DNA of 62,290 nucleotides from Candidatus Sungiibacteriota bacterium (lineage in GTDB: Bacteria > Patescibacteriota > Minisyncoccia > Sungbacterales > JACQCQ01). The stretch is from positions 1-62,290 of the forward strand of contig JACQCQ010000006.1 in the NCBI GenBank assembly GCA_016201505.1, given 5' to 3'. Below are positions 6,430-60,422 of this stretch, piece by piece (position 1 is the first letter of the stretch; each line of letters opens with the position of its first letter). The notes beneath the pieces are model-generated. The model searched no databases and was not told the origin of the DNA. It saw only the letters and a program-made list of their open reading frames with translations. The position numbers were made by a program, and so were the translations under genes.

Positions 6430-6999
6430 TTATTTTGGCATCATCCCGAAGTGTTTGTATACCCGATACTCCTGATGGCCGAGGGATTTGGTTCTTAATA
6501 CTGTGACGAATTCTCGAATACGAAACACTGAAGCGATGAAATCTACTTCGTCTTCACAGGGCGAAGGATGAACAAACACGCTTTTGTGGAATTGAAAACA
6601 TCCCAAGTCGCAGATCTTCCTGCGCAGAGCATCGCGAGCTGTTTTGTGTCGCTCGGGTATGTCAAAAAGGATAACGTTCCAATACCCATCCCAGGATTTA
6701 AATTTTGCCAATTCTAAGTTCTCAAACTCAAATTTTTTAAGACGCGTCTTCCCGGCCTCTGTAATAGCCAGAACTTCATGCCTATTTTTATCCATTCGTA
6801 TTTCAATCAGCCTTCGCCTGCGCAACCGTCGCAGAGCTTGCTCAAGAGAGCGTTTTTTCAACTGACGACTTTTTGAAATAAAAGGTTTTAAGGCGATAGC
6901 GAGTCCGGGAAGTGTCGCTGCGGCAACACCAAGAGCCCCGCCGGTGAGAGCAGCCAAGATTGATTTCACGACTGCGCCCTTTTCTGTATCCCCCTTCAT
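6430..6999 (-). CDS. wHTH + Cas2/PaaX-like domain protein with hydrophobic N-terminal segment (paralog P1 of 3)
   Basis: 189 aa. N-terminal hydrophobic stretch ILAALTGGALGVAAATLPGLAIALKP, a basic wHTH-like block (LEQALRRLRRRRLIEI...ITEAGKTRL), and WDGYWNVILFDIPERHKTARDALRRKICDLGCFQFHKSVFVHP. The last matches the W-x-x-V-x-FDIPE...R...L...G...Q/H-x-SVFV pattern of PaaX middle domains and Cas2. Confidence 0.85.
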   Translation of the reverse strand: MKGDTEKGAVVKSILAALTGGALGVAAATLPGLAIALKPFISKSRQLKKRSLEQALRRLRRRRLIEIRMDKNRHEVLAITEAGKTRLKKFEFENLELAKFKSWDGYWNVILFDIPERHKTARDALRRKICDLGCFQFHKSVFVHPSPCEDEVDFIASVFRIREFVTVLRTKSLGHQEYRVYKHFGMMPK

Positions 7000-7007
7000 G
7001 TCTCTAT

Positions 7008-7025
7008 ATTACGCTATAGCGTAAT
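7008..7025. promoter_or_regulatory. 18-nt perfect palindrome ATTACGCTATAGCGTAAT overlapping the -10-like TAATAT of P1; candidate operator
   Basis: The minus strand reads ACGCTATAGCGTAATATagagacATG. The hexamer TAATAT (7006-7011) is 6 nt from the ATG at 6999. Confidence 0.55.
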
Positions 7026-7057
7026 GTACGTACACAAAAATGCGCCGGCGCCTTATT

Positions 7058-14262: not shown

Positions 14263-15921
14263 GTGGTGCTCCAATTTGAAGAATCAAAACAACTAAAAAA
14301 ACTCTCCCAGCTTCGCGCGCGCGAGGAGGAAGAGTCGGCCAGGCAAACAGCCGAGAAACTCGGCCTGCCCTATCTTGATTTATCCGCCATTCCCATAACC
14401 ACCGAGGCTTTAAAACTGATTCCGTTTGAGACCGCGCGAAGACTCGGAATGGCGGCGATTCAGCGTGTCGGATCGAAAGTCCAGGTAGCGTTAAAAAATC
14501 CGCATAACCCCCAAGTCCAGGCTGAACTAAAGCGTCTGGAAAATGAACGGACGGAGCCCCAGCTTTTTTTGGTTTCATCCAGGTCGCTTGAGAAAGCCTT
14601 TAAAATGTACGACGAAATCCCGAAGGACCTCTCCGGCATTATCGGCCAGATCGATGTTTCCGCCGCCCGGCTCGAGTCATTTCGAACCGAAATCGTCTCG
14701 CTTGAAATGTTGCGCCAAAAAATCGGCGACATGGGCCATTCGACTATTTCAAGTTTGCTTGAAGTTATTATCGGCGGGGCTTTGGCGACTGAGGCTTCTG
14801 ATGTCCACTGCGAGCCGCAGGAGTCCGGCGTCAGAATCCGCTATCGGCTCGACGGCATCTTAATGGATATCGCCGACATTTCCAAAGAAACCTATAAATT
14901 CTTGCTCGGCCGGATTAAATTAATTTCCGAGCTCACCTTAAACATCAGGGAAAAAGCGCAGGACGGCAGATTCACCATCAAAACGCCGGACGGCGAAATT
15001 GAGGTGCGGGTCTCGACACTGCCGGGGCCGTATGGCGAAAACCTGGTCATGCGGATTTTAAATCCGACAGCCATCGGCCTTTCGCTTTCCGATCTGGGCC
15101 TGCAGCCCTGGATGGAAAAACAAATTGAAGCCGAGCTCAAAAAACCAAACGGCATGATCATTACGACCGGCCCCACAGGCTCGGGGAAAACCACCTCACT
15201 CTACGCCTTTTTAAAAAAGGTCCACCAGCCGGGGGTCAAAATCATTACTTTAGAAGACCCGATCGAGTATCATCTGCCGGGAGTTGAGCAAACCCAGGTG
15301 GAGGCGCAAAAAGGCTATGATTTTGCCAGCGGCCTTCGGGCGATTTTGCGCCAAGACCCGGATGTAATTTTAGTTGGCGAGATCCGCGACCGTGAGACGG
15401 CCGAAACCGCCATGCACGCCTCACTGACCGGTCACTTGGTATTTTCCACACTCCACACAAATAACGCCGCCGGCACCATCCCGCGGCTCATCGATATGGA
15501 AGTCAAGCCGAATATTATTGCCCCGGCCATTAATGTGGCCATGGCGCAAAGACTCGTAAGACGACTTTGCAATGATTGCAAGAAGGTGGAGCCGGCAACA
15601 GCCGCCGAGCTCGCGGTGATTAAAAAAGATTTGGAAACGTTACCCACCAATATTGAAAAACAGAACATGGCGGAATTAAAAATCGCGCATCCCGCGGGAT
15701 GCCAGGAGTGCCACGGCACCGGCTATAAAGGCCGCATCGGCGTCTATGAGTTGATTTTAATTGATGATGAAATGGAGCGGCTGATTGCGAAACAACCCTC
15801 GGAGGCGGATGTCAAAGCCGCGGCCTCAGAGCAGGGGCAGATCACGATGAGACAGGACGGGATTTTAAAAGTGATTGCAGGCGTTACGGATTTGGCCGAG
15901 CTGGAGCGTGTCGTCGGTTAG
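14263..15921 (+). CDS. pilB: GspE/PilB-family type IV pilus or type II secretion assembly ATPase
   Basis: 552 aa. N-terminal T2SSE_N-like region (LGLPYLDLSAIPITTEALKLIP), Walker A TGPTGSGKTTSL, Asp/His boxes, and a tetracysteine motif (CNDCK...CQECHGTGY). Confidence 0.9.
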   Translation: MVLQFEESKQLKKLSQLRAREEEESARQTAEKLGLPYLDLSAIPITTEALKLIPFETARRLGMAAIQRVGSKVQVALKNPHNPQVQAELKRLENERTEPQLFLVSSRSLEKAFKMYDEIPKDLSGIIGQIDVSAARLESFRTEIVSLEMLRQKIGDMGHSTISSLLEVIIGGALATEASDVHCEPQESGVRIRYRLDGILMDIADISKETYKFLLGRIKLISELTLNIREKAQDGRFTIKTPDGEIEVRVSTLPGPYGENLVMRILNPTAIGLSLSDLGLQPWMEKQIEAELKKPNGMIITTGPTGSGKTTSLYAFLKKVHQPGVKIITLEDPIEYHLPGVEQTQVEAQKGYDFASGLRAILRQDPDVILVGEIRDRETAETAMHASLTGHLVFSTLHTNNAAGTIPRLIDMEVKPNIIAPAINVAMAQRLVRRLCNDCKKVEPATAAELAVIKKDLETLPTNIEKQNMAELKIAHPAGCQECHGTGYKGRIGVYELILIDDEMERLIAKQPSEADVKAAASEQGQITMRQDGILKVIAGVTDLAELERVVG

Positions 15922-15972
15922 AGCCAAAGCTAGCCCATCCGGCGCACCATCGCGCAAAATAGTACCTATAAA

Positions 15973-15989
15973 ACACGATCGTGTATGAT
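15973..15989. promoter_or_regulatory. 12-nt palindrome ACACGATCGTGT abutting the -10-like TATGAT of paralog P2; candidate operator
   Basis: ACACGATCGTGTATGATagatacATG. Palindrome at 15973-15984, TATGAT at 15984-15989, then 6 nt to ATG 15996. Confidence 0.5.
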
Positions 15990-15995
15990 AGATAC

Positions 15996-16556
15996 ATGAA
16001 AAAGGGGGAATTCGCAAAATTAATTTTAGCCCTCCTTGCTAGCAGCACAATCGGCATCGCTGCGGCGACTATTCCTGGCGCCGCTGGTATACTGAAGATT
16101 CTGTTCAAGAGAAAAAGTCACGCCAAAAGGCATGCGGACCTTGCTCGCGCGTTACATAGATTAAGAAAAAGAAGAATGGTTAAGTTTAAGACAAAAAATG
16201 GAAAAACTTATCTTCAGATAACCGAAAGCGGCAAGACATACTTAAAGCACTTTGAATTAGAGGACCTAACATTAAATATACCAGAACATTGGGACGGGGC
16301 ATGGAGTGTCATTCTCTTCGATATACCAGAAACAAAGCGGAACGGACGCGACTCGCTGCGGGTAAAATTGCGGGATCTCGACTGCTACCAGTTCCATAAA
16401 AGTGTCTTCGTGCATCCAGCGCCTTGCGAAAATGAGATTGATTTTATCACCGAACTATTCCGGCTACAGCCGTATGTAACCGTTTTCCGAACCAAGTCGC
16501 TCGGCCGACAAGAATACAGAGCCCGCAGGTATTTCAATAATAAACTAACTCTGTAA
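15996..16556 (+). CDS. wHTH + Cas2/PaaX-like domain protein with hydrophobic N-terminal segment (paralog P2)
   Basis: Start taken at ATG 15996 (MKKGEFAKL), in frame with track ORF 15981..16556. Sequence includes IGIAAATIPGAAGILK, RALHRLRKRRMVKF...ITESGKTYL, and WDGAWSVILFDIPETKRNGRDSLRVKLRDLDCYQFHKSVFVHP. Confidence 0.85.
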   Translation: MKKGEFAKLILALLASSTIGIAAATIPGAAGILKILFKRKSHAKRHADLARALHRLRKRRMVKFKTKNGKTYLQITESGKTYLKHFELEDLTLNIPEHWDGAWSVILFDIPETKRNGRDSLRVKLRDLDCYQFHKSVFVHPAPCENEIDFITELFRLQPYVTVFRTKSLGRQEYRARRYFNNKLTL

Positions 16557-16603
16557 CCGAATCTTTCCATGCTCACCGATGTCTCGTGAAATCCCGCAAG
16601 ACA

Positions 16604-16633
16604 CCCTATTTACCACGATCGTGGTAAATAGGG
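16604..16633. repeat. 30-nt perfect palindrome CCCTATTTACCACGATCGTGGTAAATAGGG downstream of P2
   Basis: Perfect self-complementarity. Its core CACGATCGTG matches the palindrome upstream of the same gene. Confidence 0.85.
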
Positions 16634-16684
16634 CAAGAGTATGAGTTGAAAGAAAATAGGGACGTCATTGTATTCCCGCAAAGC

Positions 16685-16934: not shown

Positions 16935-17297
16935 CTTGGCCTCCTCTCTGCCAACTGGATCTCTTATCAAGCCCAGCGGGCTACCTTGGGAAAGTACCCG
17001 ACGAAGATTCTGTTTTGCAAAACGCTCGACCGACGAAGTGACCTTGGTGCCGACGTAGTCGGATCACGAGGAGTGTCGGCGAGTCGAGCTCTCGGCGGAA
17101 GAGCGAGACGCTTTTGCAAAACACGAATCGAGCCACCCAGAAAACTTGAGGCAAGGCCTCTCGCTTGGGAGCAGAGAGGTTAGGATAGACTCCTGGCACC
17201 GGTCCAGCCGGAGCCAGCCGGCCCTACGGCAACCTATCCCCTTACGGCTTGCGCCGTATTTTGCCTCAAGATTTCTGGGCGGCTCGTGTGTTACCAT
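16935..17297. ncRNA. candidate structured RNA or long structured leader in a G+C-rich non-coding island; class unassigned
   Basis: No credible ORF; only short overlapping ORFs on both strands. A 19-nt long-range pairing joins CCCAGAAAACTTGAGGCAA (17128-17146) with TTGCCTCAAGATTTCTGGG (17261-17279). Nested hairpins include CCTCTC...GAGAGG, GGATAG...CTATCC and CCGAC-GTA-GTCGG. CGGC-GCAA-GCCG forms a GNRA loop if transcribed from the minus strand. A TTTTGCAAAAC motif is duplicated. Confidence 0.25.
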
Positions 17298-17321
17298 AAA
17301 AAAGAGCTACTAAAAAGCTCT
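17296..17321 (-). terminator. hairpin AGAGCT/AGCTCT followed by a T-run on the minus strand
   Basis: The plus strand reads aaaaaAGAGCTactaaaaAGCTCT. On the minus strand a stem then TTTTTT is formed. What it terminates is unclear, because the nearest upstream minus-strand gene (tyrS) lies more than 3 kb away, so the function is uncertain. Confidence 0.3.
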
Positions 17322-24982: not shown

Positions 24983-26074
24983 TTAAGAAATCCGAATCGG
25001 CATTAATATGGTAAAAAACTGAGGATCTTGGTCATCACGAATCAGGGCTGGTCTGGTTTCATCAATCAGCGAGACGGAAATCTCACTTGACCGCAGGCCC
25101 TCTAGGGCATCGGAGAGATAGCGGTAATTAAATCCGATGCGTCCGCTTTTGCCTGAGACTTTAGCATTAATCTCTTTTGTGTGCTTACCGACGTCGGGAT
25201 TTAAAATTTCAAGCATCAGGTGATTGGGTCGGTATGATAGGACGACATCGTTTAGTTTTGATGAAAATACGCTCGAGAGCTTAACGGATGAGAGCATCTC
25301 ATCCCGCGGAATAAACAGCGAGGTCGAAAAATCTTTTGGGATTAAATTCTCATAATCAGGATACCGGTCTTGGATGAGCCGTGTCACAATTTTAACATTC
25401 TCTGATTCAATCGCTACCTGTCCTTCGTGAAACAGAAATGTTGTCTCTTGGTCTGGATCGGCAATTTTTACAAATTCTTGTAGGGGGCGTAGGGGGATAA
25501 TGGCAGAAGTTTCTTCGGTGGCGGCGAATTCACTGATTTTGGCTTCAGCTAAGCGAAACGTATCCGTGCCGGTAAGGGTCAGTTGTTTTTTCCCCGCGCG
25601 AAAAAAAAGGCCGCTGATACCGGGTTTAAAGTCAGAGGCGGAAATTGACGGTAGAATACGTAGTAATTGAGGAATTAATATTGAATTCTTAATCGTTACT
25701 TTAGTTTTACCTTTAATCTGGGGCATGATGGGAAAATCTTTTGAGATAATACCTCTTATCTCTGATTGAGAACTGTCTGTTTCTAGGGTAATAACACCCT
25801 CTTTTTCTTCGAGTGTGATTTTTTCATCAGGTAGGGTTTGTAGGAGAGAAGATAAAACACGTGGAGGAATAGCAATTGACCCCTCGCGCGCAATTTTAGC
25901 CGGGATTTGCACCTCGACCCCCATTTCTAAATTGGTGGCTTGGATCTTTAGCTTTTGTGAATCTGTTTTTATTAAAATATTACCAATTATTGGTAACGAG
26001 AGCTGTTTCCCTAAAAAACGTTCAGCAACGAGGAGTGCGTCGCGGAGTGTAGTTCGTAAGACTGTAACAACCAT
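24983..26074 (-). CDS. dnaN: DNA polymerase III beta sliding clamp
   Basis: 363 aa, directly downstream of dnaA. Three-domain length and typical N-terminus (L..AL..V......LPIL.NILI). Confidence 0.93.
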   Translation of the reverse strand: MVVTVLRTTLRDALLVAERFLGKQLSLPIIGNILIKTDSQKLKIQATNLEMGVEVQIPAKIAREGSIAIPPRVLSSLLQTLPDEKITLEEKEGVITLETDSSQSEIRGIISKDFPIMPQIKGKTKVTIKNSILIPQLLRILPSISASDFKPGISGLFFRAGKKQLTLTGTDTFRLAEAKISEFAATEETSAIIPLRPLQEFVKIADPDQETTFLFHEGQVAIESENVKIVTRLIQDRYPDYENLIPKDFSTSLFIPRDEMLSSVKLSSVFSSKLNDVVLSYRPNHLMLEILNPDVGKHTKEINAKVSGKSGRIGFNYRYLSDALEGLRSSEISVSLIDETRPALIRDDQDPQFFTILMPIRIS

Positions 26075-26274
26075 ATCTTATATCTATGTTAAATATTTTA
26101 CTTATTGTTGTTATTAGTACTCTTAATATGTGGATGATGAACTAAAAATTGTTTATCTATATATGTTTTTTATATATTAGCCGCCGTCATTACTTGTGGG
26201 TAAAATTTTATAACATGTGTGTAAGGTAGAGTGTGAATAGTTATTTTATTTTAGACCCCACATTCATCCACACC
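26075..26274. other. probable oriC (dnaA-dnaN intergenic, AT-rich with DnaA-box-like 9-mers)
   Basis: Compared with TGTGGATAA/TTATCCACA: TGTGGATGA 26129-26137, TGTGGGTAA 26205-26213 and TCATCCACA 26264-26272 (1 mismatch each), and TGTGAATAG 26232-26240 (2 mismatches). An AT-rich run spans about 26140-26185. An additional GTATCCACA lies at 27675-27683 at the dnaA 5' end. Flanking synteny is rpmH-rnpA-yidD-yidC-jag and dnaA-dnaN. Confidence 0.6.
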
Positions 26275-27684
26275 TTATACTTCATATATCTTCTCTTTAA
26301 TCATTTGTAGTTCATTTTCAATCATTGGATTATTTTTTAATTCGTTGGTGATTTTTTTACAAGCATGGATCACCGTCGTATGGTCTTTTTTACCCAACTT
26401 TTCTCCAATAAACGGAAAAGAACTTTTCATTTCTTCACGAAGGAGATACATAGCAATTTGGCGCGGTTTTACCACCTCCTTTTTTCGACTGTGATTTGTT
26501 AATGCCTTTTCTTCCACATCATAAAATTCAGCGACCGCTTTTAAGACTTTTTTGACTGAAGTAAATCTCCGAGGCTCTTGTGAGATATACGTGAGAATCC
26601 TTTTTGTTTCCTCTATTGTGATCGGGCTATTGGTTAATTTGGCGCTTATCACAATACGGTTTAAGGCGCCCTCAAGCTCGCGAACATTCGTTTTAATAGA
26701 GTCGGCAATGTACCACAGGGCCTCTTCGGGGATAACGATCCCTTTTTGGTCAGCCTTTGCCTTCAAAATCGTCATCCGCGTCTCGCGGTCGGGTTGGCCA
26801 ATATCCGCAATCATCCCACCCTCGAAGCGAGACCTAAGCCGTTCTTCCAGCGTCGGAATTGATTTGGGCGGGCGATCAGATGAAATTAATATCTGCTTGT
26901 TCCTTTCGTATAAAGCATTAAATATATGGAAAAACTCTTCCTGCATTTTCTCAGTGCGGGCAATAAATTGGATGTCGTCCATAATGAGCATGTCTACCGA
27001 GCGGTATTTTTCTTTCAGTCGCGACATCTCCTGATTTTTTAAAGCCTCTACAATCTCGCCCATGAAACGCTCTGCCGGAACGTATCTCACCTTTCGTGTC
27101 GGATTTTGTTTCATCATCTCGTTCCCGATCGCCTGGATCAGATGCGTTTTACCAAGACCCACGCCGCCATAAATAAAAAGCGGATTATAAGTTGTTCCTG
27201 GATTTTTAACGATCGATTGTCCTGCCGCGTGCGCTAACTCATTGAATGAACCAACGATGAAGGTCTCAAAGACGTAGCGCGGATTCAAATTTGTGTCAGG
27301 ATCGACCGAAAGATCCCGCAGCGAGAATTCCTCGTCGGGGATCACGACCCCCGGCTCGGGGGCATACCGTTTTTCGGCGGAGGGCCGGCGCCGGGATTCT
27401 TCCGGCGGCTGGTATTTCCCAATCACGTACTCAACATCCTTAATGTCATTATTTAAATTACGGATCGCGCGTAAAATTGATTTATGGTATTTAGATTTTA
27501 GCCATTCGCGGGCGAATCCATTGGGTACAGAGAGCGTGATAATGCCGTCTCGCAGGTCGGCAATCGCTGTTTGCTTGAACCACGTAATAAAGTTGGCTTT
27601 GGTTGTTGCCAATTCTATTTCTTGAAGCGCGTTGCGCCACAATTCTTCGTGGGTCATATGCGAGTTCGTTTTAAGTATCCACAT
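26275..27684 (-). CDS. dnaA: chromosomal replication initiator DnaA (possible true start at MTHEELW, 27657)
   Basis: Walker A GGVGLGKTHL, DDIQF, box VII/VIII, and C-terminal DNA-binding domain (PRQIAMYLLRE...DHTTVIHA). Confidence 0.97.
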   Translation of the reverse strand: MWILKTNSHMTHEELWRNALQEIELATTKANFITWFKQTAIADLRDGIITLSVPNGFAREWLKSKYHKSILRAIRNLNNDIKDVEYVIGKYQPPEESRRRPSAEKRYAPEPGVVIPDEEFSLRDLSVDPDTNLNPRYVFETFIVGSFNELAHAAGQSIVKNPGTTYNPLFIYGGVGLGKTHLIQAIGNEMMKQNPTRKVRYVPAERFMGEIVEALKNQEMSRLKEKYRSVDMLIMDDIQFIARTEKMQEEFFHIFNALYERNKQILISSDRPPKSIPTLEERLRSRFEGGMIADIGQPDRETRMTILKAKADQKGIVIPEEALWYIADSIKTNVRELEGALNRIVISAKLTNSPITIEETKRILTYISQEPRRFTSVKKVLKAVAEFYDVEEKALTNHSRKKEVVKPRQIAMYLLREEMKSSFPFIGEKLGKKDHTTVIHACKKITNELKNNPMIENELQMIKEKIYEV

Positions 27685-27792
27685 TATACTCTGCGTTGGT
27701 AATCTGGAAAGCGAGCTGAATTTCCGCCCAAATGGGGATAGACTGTTGGCTACTTGTGAATGTCAAAAAAATGATAGTATACTGTCTACCAC

Positions 27793-27927
27793 ATGTCTAT
27801 AACATACCAACCTAAAAAAAGAAAACGAAGTAAAACACACGGGTTTCTGAAACGATCAAGATCGCGCGGAGGGAAAAATGTCCTGTCTCGACGCAGGACG
27901 AAGGGGCGGCATCGACTTTCCGTCTAA
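27793..27927 (+). CDS. rpmH: 50S ribosomal protein L34
   Basis: ATG 27793 to TAA 27925-27927 reads [44 protein letters not shown] (44 aa, below the ORF-track cutoff). Canonical L34 sequence and position. Confidence 0.93.
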
Positions 27928-27932
27928 TCAGC

Positions 27933-28283
27933 TTGCGAATTTCCATGCCCCTACCAAAATCGGCCCGGCTTTCGAAAGATCGAGAAATCCAGGCGGTCTT
28001 TAAGAAATCAAAACGAGCGGAGAATGATTTTTTTATTCTCCGCGTGCATTATAAACAAGGCGCCCCCGGCAGGATGGCGATTGTTATCTCGAAAGGAGTC
28101 TCAAAAAAAGCCACCGACCGCGTGAGACTCCGCCGCAGAATATCTGAATGGGTGCGGCAGAATAAAATTCTCAAAACGAAGACCAGCGATTATGTCCTCT
28201 CGGTAAAACCGAGCGCTATGGGTATTTCTCGAACGCATTTTTATCAGTCGCTCGGCTCTTTATGGAAGCACCCTCAATTATGA
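27933..28283 (+). CDS. rnpA: ribonuclease P protein component
   Basis: LPKSARLSKDREIQAVFKK...ISKGVSKKATDRVRLRRRISE contains the RNR-type motif. Follows rpmH. Confidence 0.88.
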   Translation: MRISMPLPKSARLSKDREIQAVFKKSKRAENDFFILRVHYKQGAPGRMAIVISKGVSKKATDRVRLRRRISEWVRQNKILKTKTSDYVLSVKPSAMGISRTHFYQSLGSLWKHPQL

Positions 28284-28504
28284 AGTTCACACGCGCAATC
28301 TTTCATTTCTATCGAACGTTTTTTTCTCCAGCTTGGCACGGACTATTCGGGCCGGGCGCGGGCTGCCGGTATTATCCGACGTGTTCGCGCTATGCCGAGC
28401 GATCAATACAAAATTATGGGTTATGGCGCGGCAGCCTCAAGGCGGGAAGACGCATCCTGTCATGCAATCCATTTTCCAAAGGCGGGTTTGATCCGGTGAT
28501 ATGA
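28262..28504 (+). CDS. yidD: membrane protein insertion efficiency factor YidD
   Basis: FYRTFFSP...CRYYPTCSRYAERSIQNYGLWRGSLKAGRRILSCNPFSKGGFDPV is the canonical YidD sequence. Confidence 0.93.
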   Translation: MEAPSIMKFTRAIFHFYRTFFSPAWHGLFGPGAGCRYYPTCSRYAERSIQNYGLWRGSLKAGRRILSCNPFSKGGFDPVI

Positions 28505-28615
28505 CCCGCCAAAGTTTTTGTTAAGCTGATGTATATGAGAAAAATAAACATGAAACAACCGGGCTTTAGAAAATTTCTCGCGAAACAAAATAACATAACA
28601 AAAATTTAGGCGGGT

Positions 28616-29362
28616 ATGATTGGCGCGATTTATAACGAGATTCTTTACCGGCCGCTCGCGAATATCCTAGTTTTTTTCTATGCGGCTATCCCCTACCACG
28701 ACCTTGGTCTTTCAATAATTTTACTGACCATTGTTATTCGGCTGTTACTCTATCCCTTTATTGCCAAGCAAATGAAAGCCCAGAAGCAGCTTTCCGCCAT
28801 ACAGCCAGCATTAAAAAAAATTCAGGACCAATATAAAGACAACAAGGAGGAGCAGGCAAAAAAAGTTATGGAGCTTTACAAATCAAAGGGCGTCAACCCC
28901 GCTTCGGGCTGTTTGCCGTTACTCATTCAGTTGCCGCTCTTAATTGCGCTCTATCAAGTATTCCGGCAGGTCTCTGATCCGGCCTACTTCCAGACCTTTC
29001 TGGGCCAACTCTATTCATTTGTGCCGCACCCAACCTCAATAAATCCGACCGCTTTCGGTTTTATCAATTTGGCCCATACGAGTATCGTTCTCGGAATCTT
29101 GGCCGCGGCAACTCAGTTTTTCCAGGGCTATGTGATGACGCCATCTTCAGGAATTATCACAGGAGAAAAAAAAGTAGGGACCCCCAGCGCAGGAGATTCG
29201 TTCCAGAAAGCGCTTCAAATGCAGACGCTCTATATGCTCCCGATTATTATTTTTATTTTTTCAATCAAATTTGCTGCTGCCCTACCTCTCTACTGGGTGA
29301 CGCTAAACGTCTTCGGCATTATTCAGCAGGTGGTCACGAAAATCGATACGCCCTACATTTAA
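28616..29362 (+). CDS. yidC: membrane protein insertase YidC (short, Oxa1-like form)
   Basis: LSIILLTIVIRLLLYPF...KQMKAQKQLSAIQPALKKIQDQYKDNKEE...GVNPASGCLPLLIQLPLLIALY. Confidence 0.92.
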   Translation: MIGAIYNEILYRPLANILVFFYAAIPYHDLGLSIILLTIVIRLLLYPFIAKQMKAQKQLSAIQPALKKIQDQYKDNKEEQAKKVMELYKSKGVNPASGCLPLLIQLPLLIALYQVFRQVSDPAYFQTFLGQLYSFVPHPTSINPTAFGFINLAHTSIVLGILAAATQFFQGYVMTPSSGIITGEKKVGTPSAGDSFQKALQMQTLYMLPIIIFIFSIKFAAALPLYWVTLNVFGIIQQVVTKIDTPYI

Positions 29363-29425
29363 ATTTCTAAAAAATAGTAGACAAAAAGGCCATTTTTTGC
29401 TAGTCTCGAGCCAGAATTTTCCCCT

Positions 29426-29899
29426 ATGGCCCCCGCTGATTTGCAAGAAATGGAGACGAATGTATGCCGGGAAATTGAGAAGTTTTTAGAACTTACCAAA
29501 ATCCCGGGCAGAGTCACCCCCGAAGAATCAATGCACTTCGGGTTGCGTTTTAATATCGAAGTGCCAGACGCCAGATTTTTAATCGGCGAGCACGGCGCGA
29601 ACCTGGCCTCACTTGAATATTTGGTGAAAAAAATTGTCCAGAAAAAATTTCCCGATGGCCCTAATTTTTCGCTTGATGTGAACGATTATAAATTGCGTCA
29701 CGCCGAGATGCTCCGCGATGAGGTAAAAATGATCGCCAAAAAAGTCCGCATGTATCGAAAAGAAATTATTTTAAAACCCATGTCTTCTTATGAACGGCGC
29801 ATCATTCACATGTCGCTCGCCGAGTATCCCGATATTATAACGGAATCGGTTGGCGAAAACCCCGACCGAAGAGTCGTCATTAAACCGAATCCTCTCTAG
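29426..29899 (+). CDS. jag: Jag-like KH + R3H RNA-binding protein
   Basis: R3H motif YERRIIHMSLAEYPDIITESVGENPDRRVVIKP, preceded by a KH-like region. Follows yidC. Confidence 0.85.
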   Translation: MAPADLQEMETNVCREIEKFLELTKIPGRVTPEESMHFGLRFNIEVPDARFLIGEHGANLASLEYLVKKIVQKKFPDGPNFSLDVNDYKLRHAEMLRDEVKMIAKKVRMYRKEIILKPMSSYERRIIHMSLAEYPDIITESVGENPDRRVVIKPNPL

Positions 29900-29949
29900 T
29901 GAATCTAGTTATATTTATTACATCTAATTTATTAGTTCTACTCTATCCC

Positions 29950-29966
29950 ACGCTATAGCGTATAAT
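29950..29966. promoter_or_regulatory. palindrome ACGCTATAGCGT fused to a consensus TATAAT upstream of paralog P3; candidate operator and promoter
   Basis: ctatcccACGCTATAGCGTATAATgatgtagATG. Palindrome at 29950-29961, TATAAT at 29961-29966, then 7 nt to ATG 29974. The 19 nt CTATCCCACGCTATAGCGT are identical to the left part of the palindrome at 56780-56813. Confidence 0.55.
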
Positions 29967-29973
29967 GATGTAG

Positions 29974-30546
29974 ATGAGAAAAAATGAAATTGTAAGATCA
30001 ATCCTTATGGTATTGGCGAGTACGGGGTTGGTGGCTGCAACGGTGATGCTACCGGGGTTGGCAATAGCGCTTAAGCCGTTACTCACCAAAAAGCATTCCG
30101 GCATTAAGAGACTTTCGATTGAACGCGCGTTGCGTCGCCTTAAAACGCGCAGGATGGTTCAAATTACTCTTGATGCGGGGGGTAACGAGACTCTCTCTAT
30201 AACTGAAGCTGGCAGGGTGCGTCTACGGAGACTTGAATTCGAGGATTTAATCTTAAAAATTCCTAAATCCTGGGACGGTTACTGGAGTGTAATTTTGTTT
30301 GATATCCCTGAACGGCATAAAACTGCTCGGGACGCACTGCGCATGAAATTGCGCAGTCTCGGGTGCTTTCAGTATCACAAGAGTGTGTTTGTGCATTTTG
30401 TCCCCTGCGAAGATGAAGTCGACTTTATAGCGGAGACATTCCAAATTCGGCGCTATGTTACTGTGTTCCGGACACGATCTCTGGGCCACCAAGAGCATCG
30501 AGCGTATCGACACTTCCATTTGAAACCCCAAGCGCTCCGACGGTAA
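29974..30546 (+). CDS. wHTH + Cas2/PaaX-like domain protein with hydrophobic N-terminal segment (paralog P3)
   Basis: 190 aa. Contains LVAATVMLPGLAIALKP, ERALRRLKTRRMVQI...ITEAGRVRL, and WDGYWSVILFDIPERHKTARDALRMKLRSLGCFQYHKSVFVHF. Long identical stretches shared with P1. Confidence 0.85.
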   Translation: MRKNEIVRSILMVLASTGLVAATVMLPGLAIALKPLLTKKHSGIKRLSIERALRRLKTRRMVQITLDAGGNETLSITEAGRVRLRRLEFEDLILKIPKSWDGYWSVILFDIPERHKTARDALRMKLRSLGCFQYHKSVFVHFVPCEDEVDFIAETFQIRRYVTVFRTRSLGHQEHRAYRHFHLKPQALRR

Positions 30547-30605: not shown

Positions 30606-31817
30606 TTACTTAACGCCCGCATTCGTTGCCGGGCCTATATTCACGCGCCAGAGTGTTGAATCTTTTTTGTTTATGAAATAGAGATACTTCTCGTCGGGGG
30701 TAAGGAAGAGATGTGTCATATCAAATTGCGAGTCCGTCATGAGTAGGGACGCATTTCCCGTTGAGGCCTCAATTTTTACGAGTGCATCGTGGAAGTTGAC
30801 TTTCCCTTGATACCAATCGTCCGGAAGCCGGATTGATCCATCGCTGTTTATCGTGTCAGCGCCAAGCGGCACCGCGCAGTAGGTACTCGAGCCAACCTGA
30901 TTCCAGGCACATTTTTCCGCCAGCGTGCGGATCCCCGAAACGTCAAGAATGGCAGACGTTTTTTGATTCACCAGTCTAAGATCCTGAAGATTTCCGGCGG
31001 CGTCCGTTGATGAATATAGAAGCAGATTTTTTGCGCCAGCCGGGAGTAACGAGAGGCCGGGTCTTGAAAGAAAATTCTTAGCCGAACCACCAATCGGAAT
31101 GACATAGGCAAGACCAGACACCGCGTAGGTCGGCGTTGTGGTCAGGATCAGGCTGTTGGGGTCAATCCAGCTGACGTGAAAATCCGGGATTGATGTCTGG
31201 TAGATTGTTTTTTGGCTTTTGCCTTTGGCATCCGTCGTGGCGACGCGCAAGGTACTCCCAATCATCTCTGTGTAGGCAATCATGCTTGATTTTGGCGACC
31301 AGGCAGCGCTCGTTACTCCCGGCGGCAGAAATGATGTGCTGGACGCGGCGGTAGTTTGGTTAAAATATTTAGTTCCTCTGGCGTCGCTGTAGCCGACCGT
31401 TGAGTAGGCTTTGTCCGCCGCCCACATAACGTTTGTAATTCCAACCACAGTCAGATTAGATATCGCCGTCTCGTGCCCTCCGTCTAAATCTGCTCTCATC
31501 AGATTCCCGCCGATTTTTTGGTAGAACAAGAGACTCTTTCCGTCACCCGCCAGCGTCGCGCCGATGACGGGCTCTTTGGTAATTTGGGTCACGCTCGCGT
31601 TTACAGGCTGATTTTGATCAGCCGTTCCCGTTTTGTTGCCCGTTGTCGCGCCCGATGAACTCGAGGAACTGCCGCCCCCGCCCGGGAAGGAAAGGAATTT
31701 CGTAATTGTGGTACTCACGGAATTCGGTGAAGTGATGCGCGAATAAATAAACCAGCCAATTAGAATAAAGAGAATAATGGCAACGATACCGACTGAAATT
31801 TTTGTGACTCTTGTCAT
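30606..31817 (-). CDS. membrane-anchored TolB-like beta-propeller protein (last gene of the secretion-apparatus operon)
   Basis: Start taken at MTRVTKISVG (31817), 2 nt after the upstream stop. Has an N-terminal TM segment and a Gly/Ser linker. Repeats resemble PD40/TolB blades (AAWSPKSSMIAYTE..., LFYQKIGGNLMRADLDG). Confidence 0.55.
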   Translation of the reverse strand: MTRVTKISVGIVAIILFILIGWFIYSRITSPNSVSTTITKFLSFPGGGGSSSSSSGATTGNKTGTADQNQPVNASVTQITKEPVIGATLAGDGKSLLFYQKIGGNLMRADLDGGHETAISNLTVVGITNVMWAADKAYSTVGYSDARGTKYFNQTTAASSTSFLPPGVTSAAWSPKSSMIAYTEMIGSTLRVATTDAKGKSQKTIYQTSIPDFHVSWIDPNSLILTTTPTYAVSGLAYVIPIGGSAKNFLSRPGLSLLPAGAKNLLLYSSTDAAGNLQDLRLVNQKTSAILDVSGIRTLAEKCAWNQVGSSTYCAVPLGADTINSDGSIRLPDDWYQGKVNFHDALVKIEASTGNASLLMTDSQFDMTHLFLTPDEKYLYFINKKDSTLWRVNIGPATNAGVK

Positions 31818-31819
31818 AT

Positions 31820-32449
31820 TTAGTAAGGCGGTCCCACGTAGGTACAAACTGACTTATCGCCAAATGCTGGTTTGTAGTTTACTGGACAGGATCCACTATT
31901 AGAAGAAATTATTCCCGGCCAGCAGCTTCCGGCGTATTTATCTTTTACGTACGGGCTGGGACACGTATCGCCTGTTGATGGGATAGATCCGGGCGGGAGA
32001 GGCGCATTATTTGGGATATTGGGGTTAGCGCTTTGTAAAGCTGGGATTTGAATACTCCCAATGTTTAACTGCACCAGATGCGGATTGATTGTGTAGAGAA
32101 TAATATAAGAGCTAAGGGCTAAGACGATGCCCCAGATGGCATTGGTGATTTTGGTGTTGGCTTCGCTAATCTTACTCGGATTTCCTGCCGCATAGATACG
32201 CTTAAGCCCGCCCCAGCTGATCATGAACACCGATGAGACGCCAATGAGGGCAAGACCTAATTTATAAATAAAAATGAGGATGGCGTAGGCGTTTTGATCA
32301 GAGGCGGTGGGGACGTCATTAGCCGCTTGTGAATTTCCAGTAGCCGGCCTATCGGCGGTAAATTGGGCATCGTAATCAGCCGCAAAAGCCAACGAAGCAA
32401 TAGATACAAACAAGAGACAGAAGATAATGGATGTCGCGAAGTATTTCAT
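31820..32449 (-). CDS. pilin-like protein (VirB2/TrbC-like topology) with a Cys-rich C-terminal extension
   Basis: Signal peptide MKYFATSIIFCLLFVSIASLAFA, two hydrophobic helices (AYAILIFIYKLGLALIGVSSVFMISWGGL and AIWGIVLALSSYIILYTI) separated by a short polar loop, then a tail with 5 Cys. The assignment rests on topology only. Confidence 0.4.
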   Translation of the reverse strand: MKYFATSIIFCLLFVSIASLAFAADYDAQFTADRPATGNSQAANDVPTASDQNAYAILIFIYKLGLALIGVSSVFMISWGGLKRIYAAGNPSKISEANTKITNAIWGIVLALSSYIILYTINPHLVQLNIGSIQIPALQSANPNIPNNAPLPPGSIPSTGDTCPSPYVKDKYAGSCWPGIISSNSGSCPVNYKPAFGDKSVCTYVGPPY

Positions 32450-55601: not shown

Positions 55602-55731
55602 GGTTTCCTCCTGGACCAATCGAGTTTCGCAAACATTAAACTATTTTTGCTGTACTGACAATATATGAGCCTAAGTCAAAATAATGTCGTACAATATGAT
55701 TAAAGCAACTCTGAAGAGTCGTTTTAATCAG

Positions 55732-55769
55732 TCTGTATTGTGCAACCCTAAAAAGTCGCACAATACAGA
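55732..55769. promoter_or_regulatory. 12-bp perfect inverted repeat TCTGTATTGTGC-14 nt-GCACAATACAGA, 8 nt upstream of the recombinase ATG
   Basis: Read from the sequence. It lies inside the 5' extension of track ORF 55684..56748, which argues for the start at 55777. Confidence 0.45.
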
Positions 55770-55776
55770 CCACTCT

Positions 55777-56748
55777 ATGAAGCTCCAAGATCTAAAAAAA
55801 GACTACTTAGAATCGCTCGAAGTTGAAAAAGGCCGGTCGAAGCTTACGATCCGGAATTATGACCACTACCTCTCACGCTTTTTGGCGTATGCCAAGATTG
55901 AGTCCCCTACTAAAATAACCGAATCTCTGATTCGCGAGTATCGGCTCTATTTAAATCGGCTGGATAAAAACGGGACGCTTAAAAAACAGACACAAAATTA
56001 TCACTTGATCGCGCTGCGCAATTTCCTGAAATACTTATCGAAGCGTGATGTGGAATCACTTGCTGCCGAAAAAATAGAGCTTGCGAAAACTCCGTCACGC
56101 GATCTTGAGTTTATGGAGGAGGATGAGCTCTCGCGATTACTCAAAGCACCCGAAGCCAATAATCTGCGAGCTTTGCGCGACCGGGCGATTATCGAATTAT
56201 TTTTTTCGACCGGACTGCGTCTTTCCGAACTCACCAACTTAAATCGTGATTCGGTTAATTTAAAAAGGGGTGAGTTCTCTGTTCGCGGTAAGGGTGATAA
56301 AATTCGCGTGGTTTTTTTATCCGATACCGCGCGCGACGCGCTTAAAAAATATTTGGATAAACGCGAGGATGTTGACCCCGCCATGTTTGTGCGAATTGTT
56401 CACCCCGTTAGAAATAGGAGACGAAAAACATCTGCCAGCTCCGAAGCAAATAAAATTTCTAACGGGGTAAAAAAGGCCGGCACCGAGGATAACCTGCGAC
56501 TCACTCCCCGTTCGGTTGAGCGCATGGTGAAATATTATGCGGCCAAAGCCGGTATTACAAAGCGAGTAACGCCGCACCAATTGCGTCATTCGTTTGCCAC
56601 CGATCTTCTGCGAAATGGCGCGGATATCAGATCGGTCCAAGCTCTGCTTGGTCACTCGCACATCACGACGACGCAAATTTATACCCATGTCACCGATAAA
56701 GGCCTTCGCGAAATTCATCAGAAATTCCACGGCAAAAATCTTAGATAA
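55777..56748 (+). CDS. XerC/XerD-type tyrosine recombinase with a roughly 30-aa repeat-encoded insertion
   Basis: N-terminal SAM-like domain (YLESLEVEKGRSKLTIRNYDHYLSRF). Catalytic residues R (GLRLSEL), HQLRHSFAT, and LLGHSHITTTQIYTHV (Tyr). Start taken at MKLQDLKK. Confidence 0.88.
   Translation: MKLQDLKKDYLESLEVEKGRSKLTIRNYDHYLSRFLAYAKIESPTKITESLIREYRLYLNRLDKNGTLKKQTQNYHLIALRNFLKYLSKRDVESLAAEKIELAKTPSRDLEFMEEDELSRLLKAPEANNLRALRDRAIIELFFSTGLRLSELTNLNRDSVNLKRGEFSVRGKGDKIRVVFLSDTARDALKKYLDKREDVDPAMFVRIVHPVRNRRRKTSASSEANKISNGVKKAGTEDNLRLTPRSVERMVKYYAAKAGITKRVTPHQLRHSFATDLLRNGADIRSVQALLGHSHITTTQIYTHVTDKGLREIHQKFHGKNLR
56402..56468. repeat. 14-bp perfect inverted repeat (ACCCCGTTAGAAAT ... ATTTCTAACGGGGT) inside the recombinase coding sequence
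   Basis: Arms at 56402-56415 and 56455-56468, with a 39-nt loop. It encodes ...HPVRNRRRKTSASSEANKISNGV..., an insertion relative to Xer recombinases as I recall them. Confidence 0.7.
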
Positions 56749-56779: not shown

Positions 56780-56813
56780 TACCCTATCCCACGCTATAGC
56801 GTGGGATAGGGTA
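56780..56813. repeat. 34-nt perfect palindrome TACCCTATCCCACGCTATAGCGTGGGATAGGGTA between the recombinase and the C39-like peptidase gene
   Basis: Perfect self-complementarity, from the same family as 30552-30585. Confidence 0.85.
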
Positions 56814-56854: not shown

Positions 56855-57505
56855 ATGAAAAGAATTGGCTGTTTCCTCGGTCTTTTTTTGTGGCTTTCTG
56901 CTCTTCCGGCGCTCGCTGTCCAGGAAGCCGACACCACCACAACGCACTTTTTCTCGCTTTCAGTTCCCTTCGTGGTGCAAGCGCCCTTTGGCGATTGGTC
57001 TTCACCCTGGCAAGATTTTTGCGAAGAAGCTTCAATCACCATGAGCTACTCATATCTCACCGGCAAGGTCCCGGACAAATATGAGTCGGCCCTCGTTATG
57101 TTACGGCTCGCCATTTTTGAGATGAAAACACTAGGCTACGACAAAGATACCGATGTGCGCGACACCGAACGCATGATGCACGAGTATTTTGGTTATATGA
57201 AAACGCTGATTCTCAAAAATCCATCCGTTGCTGACATTAAAAATGCACTCTTATCAGGAAATTTAGTATTGGCGCCCTTTGACGGACAACTGGTCGATAA
57301 TCCCTATTACGTCCCGCCGGGACCGCGGTATCACATGGTGGTTATTAAGGGCTACGACAATGATAATTTCATTGTGAATGATCCGGGCACGCGCCACGGC
57401 GAAGGATTCCGCTATCCGATTAATTCGTTTATGAACGCGATTCATGACTTGGTCACCGGCGATATTAGAGAGGGTCCAAAATCAGTTCTGGTCATAGAGA
57501 AATAG
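56855..57505 (+). CDS. secreted C39-like (peptidase_C39_2 / BtrH-like) cysteine peptidase-fold protein
   Basis: Signal peptide, then FFSLSVPFVVQAPFGDWSSPWQDFCEEASITMSYSYL (the VP-x-x-Q-x-P...W...C-E-E-A-S pattern), and later HMVVIKGYDNDNFIVNDPG. A -10-like TAAAAT (56843-56848) lies 6 nt upstream of the ATG. Confidence 0.65.
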   Translation: MKRIGCFLGLFLWLSALPALAVQEADTTTTHFFSLSVPFVVQAPFGDWSSPWQDFCEEASITMSYSYLTGKVPDKYESALVMLRLAIFEMKTLGYDKDTDVRDTERMMHEYFGYMKTLILKNPSVADIKNALLSGNLVLAPFDGQLVDNPYYVPPGPRYHMVVIKGYDNDNFIVNDPGTRHGEGFRYPINSFMNAIHDLVTGDIREGPKSVLVIEK

Positions 57506-57507
57506 GT

Positions 57508-57541
57508 CTACCGATAAGGTACTATAGTACCTTATCGGTAG
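57508..57541. repeat. 34-nt perfect palindrome CTACCGATAAGGTACTATAGTACCTTATCGGTAG downstream of the C39-like gene
   Basis: Perfect self-complementarity with the same central CTATAG as the ACGCTATAGCGT family. Confidence 0.85.
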
Positions 57542-59398: not shown

Positions 59399-59469
59399 CG
59401 GGCCATAGTGTAGCGGTAGCACGAGTCCTTCGGGAGGATTTAGCCCCGGTTCGATTCCGGGTGGCCCGA
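59399..59469 (+). tRNA. tRNA-Pro (anticodon CGG), CCA not encoded
   Basis: Manual cloverleaf: acceptor CGGGCCA/TGGCCCG, D stem GTGT/GCAC, anticodon stem AGTCC/GGATT with loop TTCGGGA (G37), T arm CCCGG-TTCGATT-CCGGG, discriminator A. Confidence 0.85.
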
Positions 59470-59532
59470 CAGATAAAAATTTAGGCGGGCAAGGGTGCGC
59501 CTGCCTGTCGCGAGACAGGTGTAGACTGGGTT

Positions 59533-59597
59533 CTCCGCCAGCCGGCTCCGCCAGCCGGCTCCGCCAGCCGGCTCCGCCAGCCGGCTCCGCCAGCCGG
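59533..59597. repeat. five perfect tandem copies of the 13-mer CTCCGCCAGCCGG
   Basis: Copies start at 59533, 59546, 59559, 59572 and 59585. The array begins 64 nt downstream of tRNA-Pro. Confidence 0.95.
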
Positions 59598-59693
59598 CGG
59601 ACTAGTGCCCCGACTGAAACTAGGATCGAGATTCTCGATTGGCTCTTCGACAAGGATCAATCACGGGATCTTAATCTTAGAAAGGAAAAATAC

Positions 59694-60422
59694 ATGCGTT
59701 TTTACGAGAACGTTTCGGCGTATCTTTCCACCGTCGATGACGGGCCTATGGGCAGTTCAACCAACCGGGTCGGCCAATATGCCGAGAATCGAGAACGATT
59801 TTTGGCAAAGAACGGCATTGCGCCCGGCCAGCTCGTTTTGGGCGGTCTCGTGTCAAAAGACAGAATTGGTCTCGTGACGAAAGTCCCGCCGACCCAGCGC
59901 GTTCCGGACACCGATGCGCTGGTCACCAAAATCCCTGGCATCGCGCTTGGCATGGTGCATTCCGATTGCTTCCCGGTGTATCTGCGTTGGCCGTCGGGTA
60001 TCGCACTCGTACACGCCGGTTGGCGCGGCATTTCTCTCGGCATCGTATCGAAGACCCTAAAGCGCTTAAAAGCTCTGGGTGTGGATCCCTCGCTGCTCGC
60101 CATCCAGATCGGTGTTGGCATCCAACAATGCCATTTCGTCATGCAGGATGACGAAAATGGCGTGAGTCATTTCCTGAACGATCGCGATCCCTCGCTTGAC
60201 TACCGGCGGCACATTAAAAGGGTGGGCGAGCTGTTCTATGTTGATCTGCGTGCCGTTGCCCTGGTCCAAATCCACGCAACCTATAAAGCCTTCGGCCTTA
60301 CGGTTCTCCCTGGCCAGATGAGAGCCTCGAAAGAATGTTCCTTTTGCGGGGAAGGAAGTTTCTACTCACAACGGAGACAGCCAACTCCAGGCCACAACAA
60401 TCTCTCGGTCATGGTGTGCTGA
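59694..60422 (+). CDS. pgeF: YfiH/PgeF-family (DUF152, laccase-domain) protein
   Basis: TDALVTKIPGIALGMVHSDCFPVYL...ALVHAGWRG matches the D-A-x-x-T...ADC-x-P...HAGWRG signature. Confidence 0.85.
   Translation: MRFYENVSAYLSTVDDGPMGSSTNRVGQYAENRERFLAKNGIAPGQLVLGGLVSKDRIGLVTKVPPTQRVPDTDALVTKIPGIALGMVHSDCFPVYLRWPSGIALVHAGWRGISLGIVSKTLKRLKALGVDPSLLAIQIGVGIQQCHFVMQDDENGVSHFLNDRDPSLDYRRHIKRVGELFYVDLRAVALVQIHATYKAFGLTVLPGQMRASKECSFCGEGSFYSQRRQPTPGHNNLSVMVC

Follow-up and report, generated by a model that had tools for sequence, protein, structure and literature searches.

A gene encoding a short PaaX-like protein, designated P2 (positions 15996 to 16556, plus strand), lies between two palindromic sites of the same type in a 62,290-nt stretch of DNA from Candidatus Sungiibacteriota bacterium (contig JACQCQ010000006.1, positions 1 to 62,290, forward strand), which was analyzed at full length and is referred to here as the window. 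The arrangement is shared by the protein family to which P2 belongs. A matching palindrome or partly palindromic site was found both upstream and downstream of nearly every gene among approximately 70 nonredundant homologs from genomes of the candidate phyla radiation (CPR) and from metagenomes, and the paired sites match within a locus and differ between loci. We give roughly even chances to our favored reading, that the gene and its two sites form a cognate two-operator autoregulatory unit, gained and lost whole.

Paired sites at P2 and across the family

The upstream site of P2 (positions 15962 to 15995) is an imperfect 34-nt palindrome with the core ACACGATCGTGT at 15973 to 15984, and its conserved blocks, CTAT-N4-CACGATCGTG-N4-ATAG, span positions 15966 to 15991. 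A -10-like hexamer, TATGAT (15984 to 15989, plus strand), falls within the right arm and ends 6 nt ahead of the ATG (15996); its first T (position 15984) is the last T of ACACGATCGTGT. The downstream site (16604 to 16633), located between P2 and a convergent minus-strand unit, is a perfect 30-nt palindrome, CCCTATTTACCACGATCGTGGTAAATAGGG. These sequences and positions agree with those reported in an earlier note on this DNA, which had been made from the sequence alone. The upstream palindrome described in that note is present, but it is not a 12-nt element; it is imperfect, extends over 26 to 34 nt, and has outer CTAT/ATAG blocks in common with the downstream copy. An extra copy of the outer half-site AAATAGGG was observed at 16653 to 16660, 22 nt past the downstream site and oriented like its right arm.

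The core of the sites distinguishes P2 from its two paralogs in the window, P1 and P3. The sequence CACGATCGTG occurs exactly twice in the window, with both copies flanking P2, so that the CGATCG type is not common near unrelated genes within this stretch. The sequence ACGCTATAGCGT occurs five times, on the flanks of P1 (positions 6386 and 7011), on the flanks of P3 (29950 and 30563), and in an orphan palindrome (56791). The earlier claim that the P2 core differs from the P1/P3 core at both ends is therefore correct. A genome-wide repeat resembling repetitive extragenic palindromic (REP) sequences was rejected within the window, given that all copies of CACGATCGTG and four of the five copies of ACGCTATAGCGT flank paralogs. 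The pattern CTAT-N4-CACGATCGTG-N4-ATAG matched both P2 sites with 0 mismatches, while 0.00 matches were expected in shuffled sequences, even with 2 mismatches allowed.

The difference between the P2 and P3 sites had been described in the earlier note as identical half-sites with a spacer 4 nt shorter in P2, a description that is not the best way to parse them. In P2, in P3, and at the homologous loci L005 and L022 alike, 9 nt separate the outer CCTAT block from the dyad. Although the P2 center is 4 nt shorter, the CCCTAT-to-ATAGGG span is 30 nt in the downstream sites of both P2 and P3, which indicates that 2 extra nucleotides on each side compensate. What sets P2 apart is therefore its inner 18 bp, equally readable as a change of the 6-bp center from CTATAG to CGATCG, and not the spacing of the half-sites.

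The family-wide survey covered 18 genome loci and 80 metagenome loci, in which 98 family genes were located; these were reduced to 70 nonredundant short members, the flanks of which were searched. For genes missed by a strict palindrome finder, matched sites were visible by eye. Pairing was evaluated at 38 nonredundant loci by matching the central 22-mer of each downstream site to the 150 nt upstream of genes. The match to the gene's own upstream region had a mean of 4.4 mismatches, compared with 9.2 for other loci, and none of 10,000 random re-pairings was as good. The occurrence of one site type at both ends of a gene copy, first noticed at P2, is thus a property of the whole family. A chance origin of the P2 site pairing was rejected by the shuffles and permutations.

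Long zero-loop palindromes were concentrated at the family genes: 95 of 134 (71%) in 660 kb of loci lay within 320 nt of the end of a family gene. Their centers form a small set, all readable as a 6-bp CNNNNG (CTATAG, CGATCG, CGACCG, CGATAG, CCATGG, and CGGCCG), and a gene has the same center at both of its ends. The outer arms are gene specific even within one genome, as in P1 versus P2 versus P3. Orthologs occupying the same locus next to lepA (L009 versus L058 and L060) have switched their center at both ends together. The comparison of protein and palindrome proposed in the earlier note yielded a positive correlation, in that site similarity followed protein similarity for both centers and arms (Mantel r = 0.29 to 0.54, p <= 4e-4), and the proposal of co-variation was not refuted. 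Asymmetric sites were in direct relative orientation in 12 cases and inverted in 14, a mixture that fits sites acting symmetrically.

Family-type palindromes were also found as solo copies, 2 in the window and approximately 10 in the 660 kb of loci. Solos at gene 3' ends (L052, 9167 to 9204; L011, 5586 to 5623; L028, 10041 to 10082; L035, 9955 to 9998; L093, 2029 to 2064; and L034, 9355 to 9390) have AT-rich arms and a CG-rich 6- to 8-bp center, and they lie a long way from the family gene of their locus, whose own sites they do not resemble. The L052 solo is situated at the convergent junction of holA and rpsT, which in the window is occupied by the complete P1 cassette.

The anatomy of the sites was profiled over 47 loci by distance from the dyad, using the identity between the two copies and the symmetry within each copy. 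Both measures were high at 1 to 4 nt, ranged from 0.55 to 0.75 at 5 to 9 nt, reached 0.8 to 0.95 at 10 to 17 nt, and decayed past 18 nt. The family site, 30 to 54 bp in length (median, 38 to 40 bp), is bipartite, with a 6- to 8-bp center, a loose 5-nt spacer, and an outer block 10 to 17 nt from the dyad. P2 fits this profile with its center CACGATCGTG, free N4, and outer CTAT/ATAG. Two blocks separated by a trough at 5 to 9 nt are predicted for protein contacts and not for a uniform stem. In the less palindromic clades, only the center and outer arms are retained, and the P2 upstream site has both blocks even though, as single-stranded DNA, it does not fold into a stable hairpin (z = -0.85).

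The mini-PaaX protein and the proposed autoregulatory unit

The 186-aa product of P2 is predicted to consist of an N-terminal winged helix, a linker helix, and a Cas2-like ferredoxin-fold domain. Its paralogs are P1 (positions 6430 to 6999, minus strand; 189 aa), between holA and rpsT, and P3 (29974 to 30546, plus strand; 190 aa), after yidC-jag. P2 shares 51 to 52% identity with P1 and P3, and these two share 61% with each other; P2 is the most divergent of the three, as previously claimed. All three match the Pfam family PF20803 (PaaX_M), the Cas2-like middle domain of PaaX, with E values of approximately 1e-20 and 70 to 75 bits against a cutoff of 24 (P2, E = 4.8e-21, 75 bits), and this domain is carried by 54 of 54 homologs. 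The proteins stop about 10 residues past the Cas2-like domain and do not have the C-terminal helical effector (phenylacetyl-coenzyme A) domain of PaaX. Consistent with this, TIGR02277, the full-length PaaX equivalog, scored 24 to 29 bits against a cutoff of 264.55 and covered only profile positions 31 to 162 of 279. The Pfam N-terminal PaaX domain was not matched in the paralogs, which gave only weak PadR and DUF4364 matches in that search.

In the AlphaFold2 (AF2) model of P2 (pLDDT, 77.5), three helices and a beta-hairpin wing are followed by a linker helix and a beta-alpha-beta-beta-alpha-beta ferredoxin-like domain; the N-terminal region has an H-H-H-beta-beta topology with a pLDDT of 40 to 74. 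A Foldseek search with this model retrieved Escherichia coli PaaX (8a39) as the best match (139 columns, E = 6.7e-4), with Cas2 structures next and the ribonucleases SSO8090, SSO1404, and VapD also among the matches. A sequence search against solved structures returned nothing significant. The reading of the N-terminal hydrophobic stretch as a membrane anchor was rejected, with low confidence, in favor of winged-helix helices 1 and 2, on the basis of the alignment of less hydrophobic clades and the AF2 topology. By the profile matches and the predicted model, P1, P2, and P3 appear to be mini-PaaX proteins, i.e., the DNA-binding and dimerization parts of PaaX without its effector domain. Invariant polar residues of the Cas2-like domain include the Asp of FDIPE and an H-P-x-x-C-x-x-E motif. 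The cas2 model TIGR01573 scored 13.3 bits against a cutoff of 24.5, and PF09827 gave E = 0.15.

Profile searches at E <= 1e-30 recovered 770 clusters (50% identity), almost all of 170 to 210 aa. The named sources were Sungbacteria, Parcubacteria, Giovannonibacteria, and other CPR metagenome-assembled genomes, and several family copies per genome are common. The neighbors of P1, P2, and P3 are housekeeping genes. Neither relatives in viral contigs, phage records, or plasmid records nor PHROG and PADLOC matches above noise were found, and on these grounds a phage, plasmid, or defense origin was rejected. At L004, L019, L023, and L025, one or two small secreted or membrane proteins resembling type IV secretion pilins are encoded 0.3 to 1.1 kb upstream of the family gene. 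P2 itself follows a gene for a PilB/GspE-type ATPase, which, together with the pilin-like neighbors elsewhere, may hint at a link to cell surface genes.

The sites of P1 and P3 resemble those of P2 in their placement. On the minus strand, TAATAT is fused to the P1 upstream site (7005 to 7028; core ATTACGCTATAGCGTAAT), 6 nt ahead of the start codon; TATAAT (29961 to 29966) is fused to the P3 upstream site (29937 to 29974; CTATCCCACGCTATAGCGT), 7 nt ahead of the start codon. At every upstream site in the window, including that of P2, a -10-like hexamer 6 to 7 nt from the ATG thus takes the place of the right arm, and such fusions also occur in L110, L111, L056, and others. If these boxes are promoter elements, their position implies a leaderless or near-leaderless mRNA and an operator lying over the promoter. 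The downstream sites of P1 (6375 to 6408; GTCTCCATTCTACGCTATAGCGTAGAATGGAGAC) and P3 (30552 to 30585; TACCCTATGCCACGCTATAGCGTGGCATAGGGTA) are perfect 34-nt palindromes. All three downstream sites lie between convergent units: P1 faces rpsT, P3 faces a gene at 30606 to 31847, and P2 faces the minus-strand unit, which has a perfect sigma-70 promoter (TTGACA-16-TATAAT, 17352 to 17325).

From these features, we infer that mini-PaaX binds its flanking sites as a dimer or a dimer of dimers, with the Cas2-like domain as the dimerization module, as in PaaX. Binding at the upstream site, over the gene's own -10 box, would repress its transcription, and the downstream copy would constitute a second operator. 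Its perfect symmetry and its location between convergent genes might further allow the downstream copy to insulate the cassette, as a hairpin or roadblock working in both directions. The gene and both sites would be inherited, gained, and lost as one unit. At P2, the center of both sites would have switched to CGATCG, with the outer CCTAT block staying in position. The recognition helices of P3, L005, and L022 resemble that of P2; given the common 9-nt position of the outer CCTAT block, the winged helix of P2 probably continues to recognize this half-site.

Several observations weigh against this autoregulatory unit. The sites can be perfectly symmetric over as many as 54 nt, which is more than a dimer requires. 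Among double changes between the copies of one locus, 54 of 77 keep pairing (p = 5e-11 versus one-third), and such mostly compensatory changes point to base pairing or template-switch correction acting besides protein readout. The family-wide enrichment of -10-like boxes beside start codons is modest (17 versus 10 of 69). Solo sites are found at gene 3' ends, mostly between convergent genes, which is odd for operators. A code linking recognition-helix residues to center type was looked for across the loci, and none was visible.

The P2 center itself adds to these difficulties. P2 nests in a clade of the protein tree in which all other members use CTATAG or CGATAG, as do its closest relatives (55 to 61% identity), and CGATCG is common only in distant clades. 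Moreover, a solo palindrome with a CGATCG center stands at the P2 position in two relatives without the gene: AGCGTAGCCACTATAATACGATCGTATTATAGTGGCTACGCT in L100/L104 and TGTAACCATTTACTCACGATCGTGGGAAAATGGTTACA in L102/L103, the latter with ATTTAC-CACGATCGTG arms that resemble the P2 downstream site. The CTATAG-type relatives and the solo CGATCG palindromes together suggest that the P2 center may be a property of the locus rather than of the protein. The solo may be the footprint of a deletion between flanking repeats or a resident palindrome that received the gene. The earlier note had proposed a cognate protein-site pair or a concerted change; the pairing at both ends and the tracking of the protein stand, but the P2 core cannot be attributed to the specificity of the P2 protein alone.

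Gain and loss of cassettes and competing explanations

Comparison with the nearest syntenic relatives, in which PilB is 68 to 73% identical, revealed the order polA-tsaE-...-pilB-gap-ruvB-yebC-ruvC, with a conserved gap and no family gene after pilB. Nor do the relatives have P1 or P3 at the corresponding positions: rpsT adjoins or overlaps holA, and jag and the gene beyond it are directly convergent. No intact palindrome is left at these empty P1 and P3 positions. The absence of P1, P2, and P3 from otherwise collinear regions identifies the cassettes as units of gain or loss. This gain or loss of whole cassettes, which does not appear in the earlier note, is an important part of the picture. 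Within subclades, synteny is stable, with tsaD, lepA, or ksgA as neighbors. In one relative (L105), an open reading frame (ORF) resembling LAGLIDADG_3 (14265 to 15080) lies between a bPH_2 gene and yebC and is absent from the window and from L104, representing another insertion polymorphism in an otherwise collinear region.

Gain and loss can also be explained if the palindromes delimit a mobile or excisable cassette that inserts and excises whole, leaving solos behind or using them as targets; we regard this as possible, though on the unlikely side. The catalyst could be the encoded protein, with its winged helix bound to the ends and a Cas2-like fold that serves as a nuclease fold in Cas2 and VapD, or it could be a host tyrosine recombinase acting on a 12-6-12 site. 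The matching ends would then reflect insertion, excision, or end recognition, as in REP elements with their REP-associated tyrosine transposases (RAYTs) or in dif modules. Such mobility would be in keeping with the absence of all three cassettes from collinear regions of the nearest relatives, the solo palindromes at the P2 position and at the holA/rpsT junction of L052, the invariant polar residues of the Cas2-like domain, and the parsing of the sites into arms and a 6-bp CNNNNG center that is the same at both gene ends. An orphan P3-type palindrome in the window (56780 to 56813) points in the same direction. It lies 32 nt after a gene for an Xer-like recombinase, upstream of a gene for a C39-like peptidase, and differs from the P3 downstream site by one symmetric base pair change, with 5 extra nucleotides of asymmetric left flank in common.

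Other evidence argues against such an element. The paralogs are only 51 to 61% identical, which excludes recent intragenomic transposition; synteny is stable within subclades; and a search for target site duplications around P1, P2, and P3 revealed only chance repeats of 6 to 7 nt. Searches of viral contigs, phage records, and plasmid records yielded no family relatives, and PHROG and PADLOC gave no match above noise. A tblastn search with the Xer-like protein of the window detected no homolog within 5 kb of other family genes or in any other locus. Recombinase systems need a fixed orientation of their sites, whereas the orientation here is mixed, and the gene-specific outer arms within one genome are a poor fit to a single host recombinase. 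Presence and absence can also result from ordinary deletion between flanking repeats.

The Xer-like tyrosine recombinase gene occupies positions 55684 to 56748. The second solo palindrome of the window (57508 to 57541; CTACCGATAAGGTACTATAGTACCTTATCGGTAG) has the core TACTATAGTA, the same as that of locus L069, and is found downstream of the C39-like peptidase gene (56855 to 57505), so that this gene is bracketed by two unlike family-type palindromes, one P3-like and the other with the core TACTATAGTA.

A second alternative, which we consider improbable, is that the palindromes are protein-independent two-way terminators or a cruciform-forming type of DNA characteristic of these genomes and that the family gene merely sits between two of them, for example, after landing in a palindrome that was then duplicated. 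The downstream and solo copies form very stable perfect hairpins (z = -7 to -9.5; P2 downstream site, -12.7 kcal/mol, z = -7.9), they lie at gene 3' ends and often between convergent genes, and their pairing is preserved by the compensatory changes. G.T and A.C mismatches are equally rare, as if both strands had to fold, and a solo palindrome is present at the P2 locus without the gene. However, a T-rich tail was found in only 2 of 38 downstream sites, and ordinary A/T-run terminators with unrelated stems exist in the same genomes. In the window, a terminator scan was passed by the P1 downstream site only; the P2 and P3 sites failed. With so few T-rich tails, and with a P2 upstream site that does not form a stable hairpin, the sites cannot be accounted for as ordinary intrinsic terminators, in line with the earlier argument that unrelated terminators would not be expected to show the pairing. 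Upstream copies are often poor hairpins and yet retain the center and outer block, and the trough at 5 to 9 nt is not expected of a stem. Nor would structural elements of this kind account for the high proportion of long palindromes adjoining a family gene, the matched pair at nearly every member, or the empty P1 and P3 positions, which hold no intact palindrome. We know of no mechanism that duplicates a 30- to 50-bp terminator around an inserted gene.

The lack of a G.T bias, together with the few T-rich tails, argues against both a sense-strand RNA hairpin and a classical terminator, and sense-strand RNA structure was rejected because G.T and A.C mismatches are equal. The sites look like DNA-level symmetry or like a hairpin needed on both strands. 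It is most improbable that they are RNA hairpins bound or cut by the Cas2-like, RNA recognition motif-like domain, by which the protein would control or process its own transcript much as CRISPR repeats are processed: Cas2-fold ribonucleases (SSO8090, SSO1404, and VapD) do occur among the structural matches and the repeat-insert-repeat layout does resemble a CRISPR (clustered regularly interspaced short palindromic repeat) unit, but the -10-like box inside or after the upstream site would place that copy outside the gene's own mRNA, G.U mismatches are not in excess over A.C on the sense strand (13 versus 12 and 6 versus 7), the P2 upstream site does not fold stably, no CRISPR-like array was found in the window, and the score of the cas2 model lies below its cutoff.

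Other features of the window touch on its cassettes only by position. A scan of the window with Rfam, at gathering and E-value thresholds, retrieved only 4 tRNAs and nothing over the palindromes. Between the P2 downstream site and ruvB, a conserved structured noncoding element (17125 to 17300, minus strand) follows the 17352-to-17325 promoter and precedes a small membrane-like ORF (16970 to 16794, minus strand). The element was also found in L099 (6100 to 6300), L100 (6050 to 6250), and L102 (2940 to 3130). RNAalifold predicted 54 pairs, 10 of them with compensatory changes among the 4 sequences; with no match in Rfam, the element may be an undescribed leader or riboswitch-like RNA. By size and synteny with L104 and L106 to L108, dnaN (24983 to 26074, minus strand) and dnaA (26275 to 27684, minus strand) were recognized; with rnpA/yidC/jag following (24983 to 29899 in all), the window appears to span the replication origin region, with P3 just beyond. 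A perfect 13-nt tandem repeat, CTCCGCCAGCCGG x 5.1, lies at 59533 to 59598 between tRNA-Pro (59399 to 59470) and an ORF at 59694.

Relation to known systems

The closest known counterpart is PaaX of E. coli and Pseudomonas (PDB 8a39 and 3l09), in which an N-terminal winged helix precedes the Cas2-like middle domain PF20803, the order that is also predicted for mini-PaaX. E. coli PaaX recognizes the operator TGATTC-N27-GAATCA and represses its own promoter by blocking or excluding RNA polymerase (PMC9493321). Its operator is long, with widely spaced inverted repeats, and overlaps the regulated promoter; the sites described here are of comparable length, and their upstream copies overlap -10-like boxes. 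In contrast to PaaX, the mini-PaaX proteins are 180 to 200 aa long and entirely without the C-terminal ligand-binding domain, they have no paa genes nearby, and they occur as several paralogs per genome in CPR bacteria. Their sites are full palindromes with a conserved center and are found at both ends of the regulator's own gene.

In REP/RAYT systems, a single-copy gene is flanked by short extragenic palindromes of a matching class and is largely inherited vertically (PMC2817692 and PMC3116915). As in the mini-PaaX family, the gene is flanked by its own palindrome class, and further copies lie at gene 3' ends. RAYTs are HUH/Y1 (IS200/IS605-like) transposases, however, whereas the paralogs gave only PaaX_M and weak helix-turn-helix matches in Pfam and NCBIfam. 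Solos number hundreds per genome in REP systems and 2 in 62 kb here, and the palindromes described here are longer and perfect, with no REPIN doublets seen. The dif modules and other Xer-dependent elements are small gene modules bounded by two-arm sites with a 6-bp center (PMC6449649). They show a similar modular presence and absence, a 12-6-12 parse of the mini-PaaX sites is possible, and one solo in the window adjoins an Xer-like recombinase gene. In contrast to dif modules, the cargo here is always the same protein family, the centers are often fully palindromic, the arms differ among P1, P2, and P3, the orientation is mixed, and there is no plasmid context.

Two further comparisons concern the protein. 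With Cas2 and CRISPR, the family shares the ferredoxin fold at the C terminus and a palindromic repeat of 30 to 46 nt on either side of an insert, but cas1, an array, and a leader are all missing and the "insert" is the gene itself, so that only the fold is in common. Cas2 is not the catalytic integrase in CRISPR. The Bacillus subtilis replication terminator protein (RTP), with its Ter sites, belongs to the self-regulating winged-helix proteins, small dimers with sites beside their own gene that serve both to autoregulate it and to block a polymerase. Unlike mini-PaaX, RTP has no Cas2-like domain; mini-PaaX has sites on both sides and many paralogs, and the comparison does not extend to replication termination.

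Searches of the accessible literature returned nothing on the mini-PaaX family or its palindrome-bracketed arrangement. We group the system with the PaaX-type repressors and their long inverted-repeat operators; the rule that the gene is bracketed by its own palindrome pair is distinctive and apparently undescribed. An alternative that we hold to be unlikely is an undescribed CPR cassette, in which the gene for a Cas2-fold winged-helix protein, placed between two CRISPR-repeat-sized palindromes that the protein recognizes, would insert into and excise from intergenic sites and leave solos at gene ends, paralleling REP/RAYT on another fold, or else a protein-dependent terminator/insulator system made up of the proteins and their dispersed palindromes. 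P2 would then be a cassette with re-specified ends or one that landed in a resident CGATCG palindrome. If the sites are indeed mobile ends or terminators/insulators, they would add a new class of element to the genomes of a major uncultured lineage, and they might shed light on how the Cas2 fold came to be paired with palindromic repeats.

For CPR bacteria (Patescibacteria), whose tiny genomes have very few characterized regulators, the mini-PaaX family is a large one. The bracketing rule yields hundreds of natural protein-site pairs from which a DNA recognition code could be worked out, and the targets of each paralog could be predicted from sequence alone.

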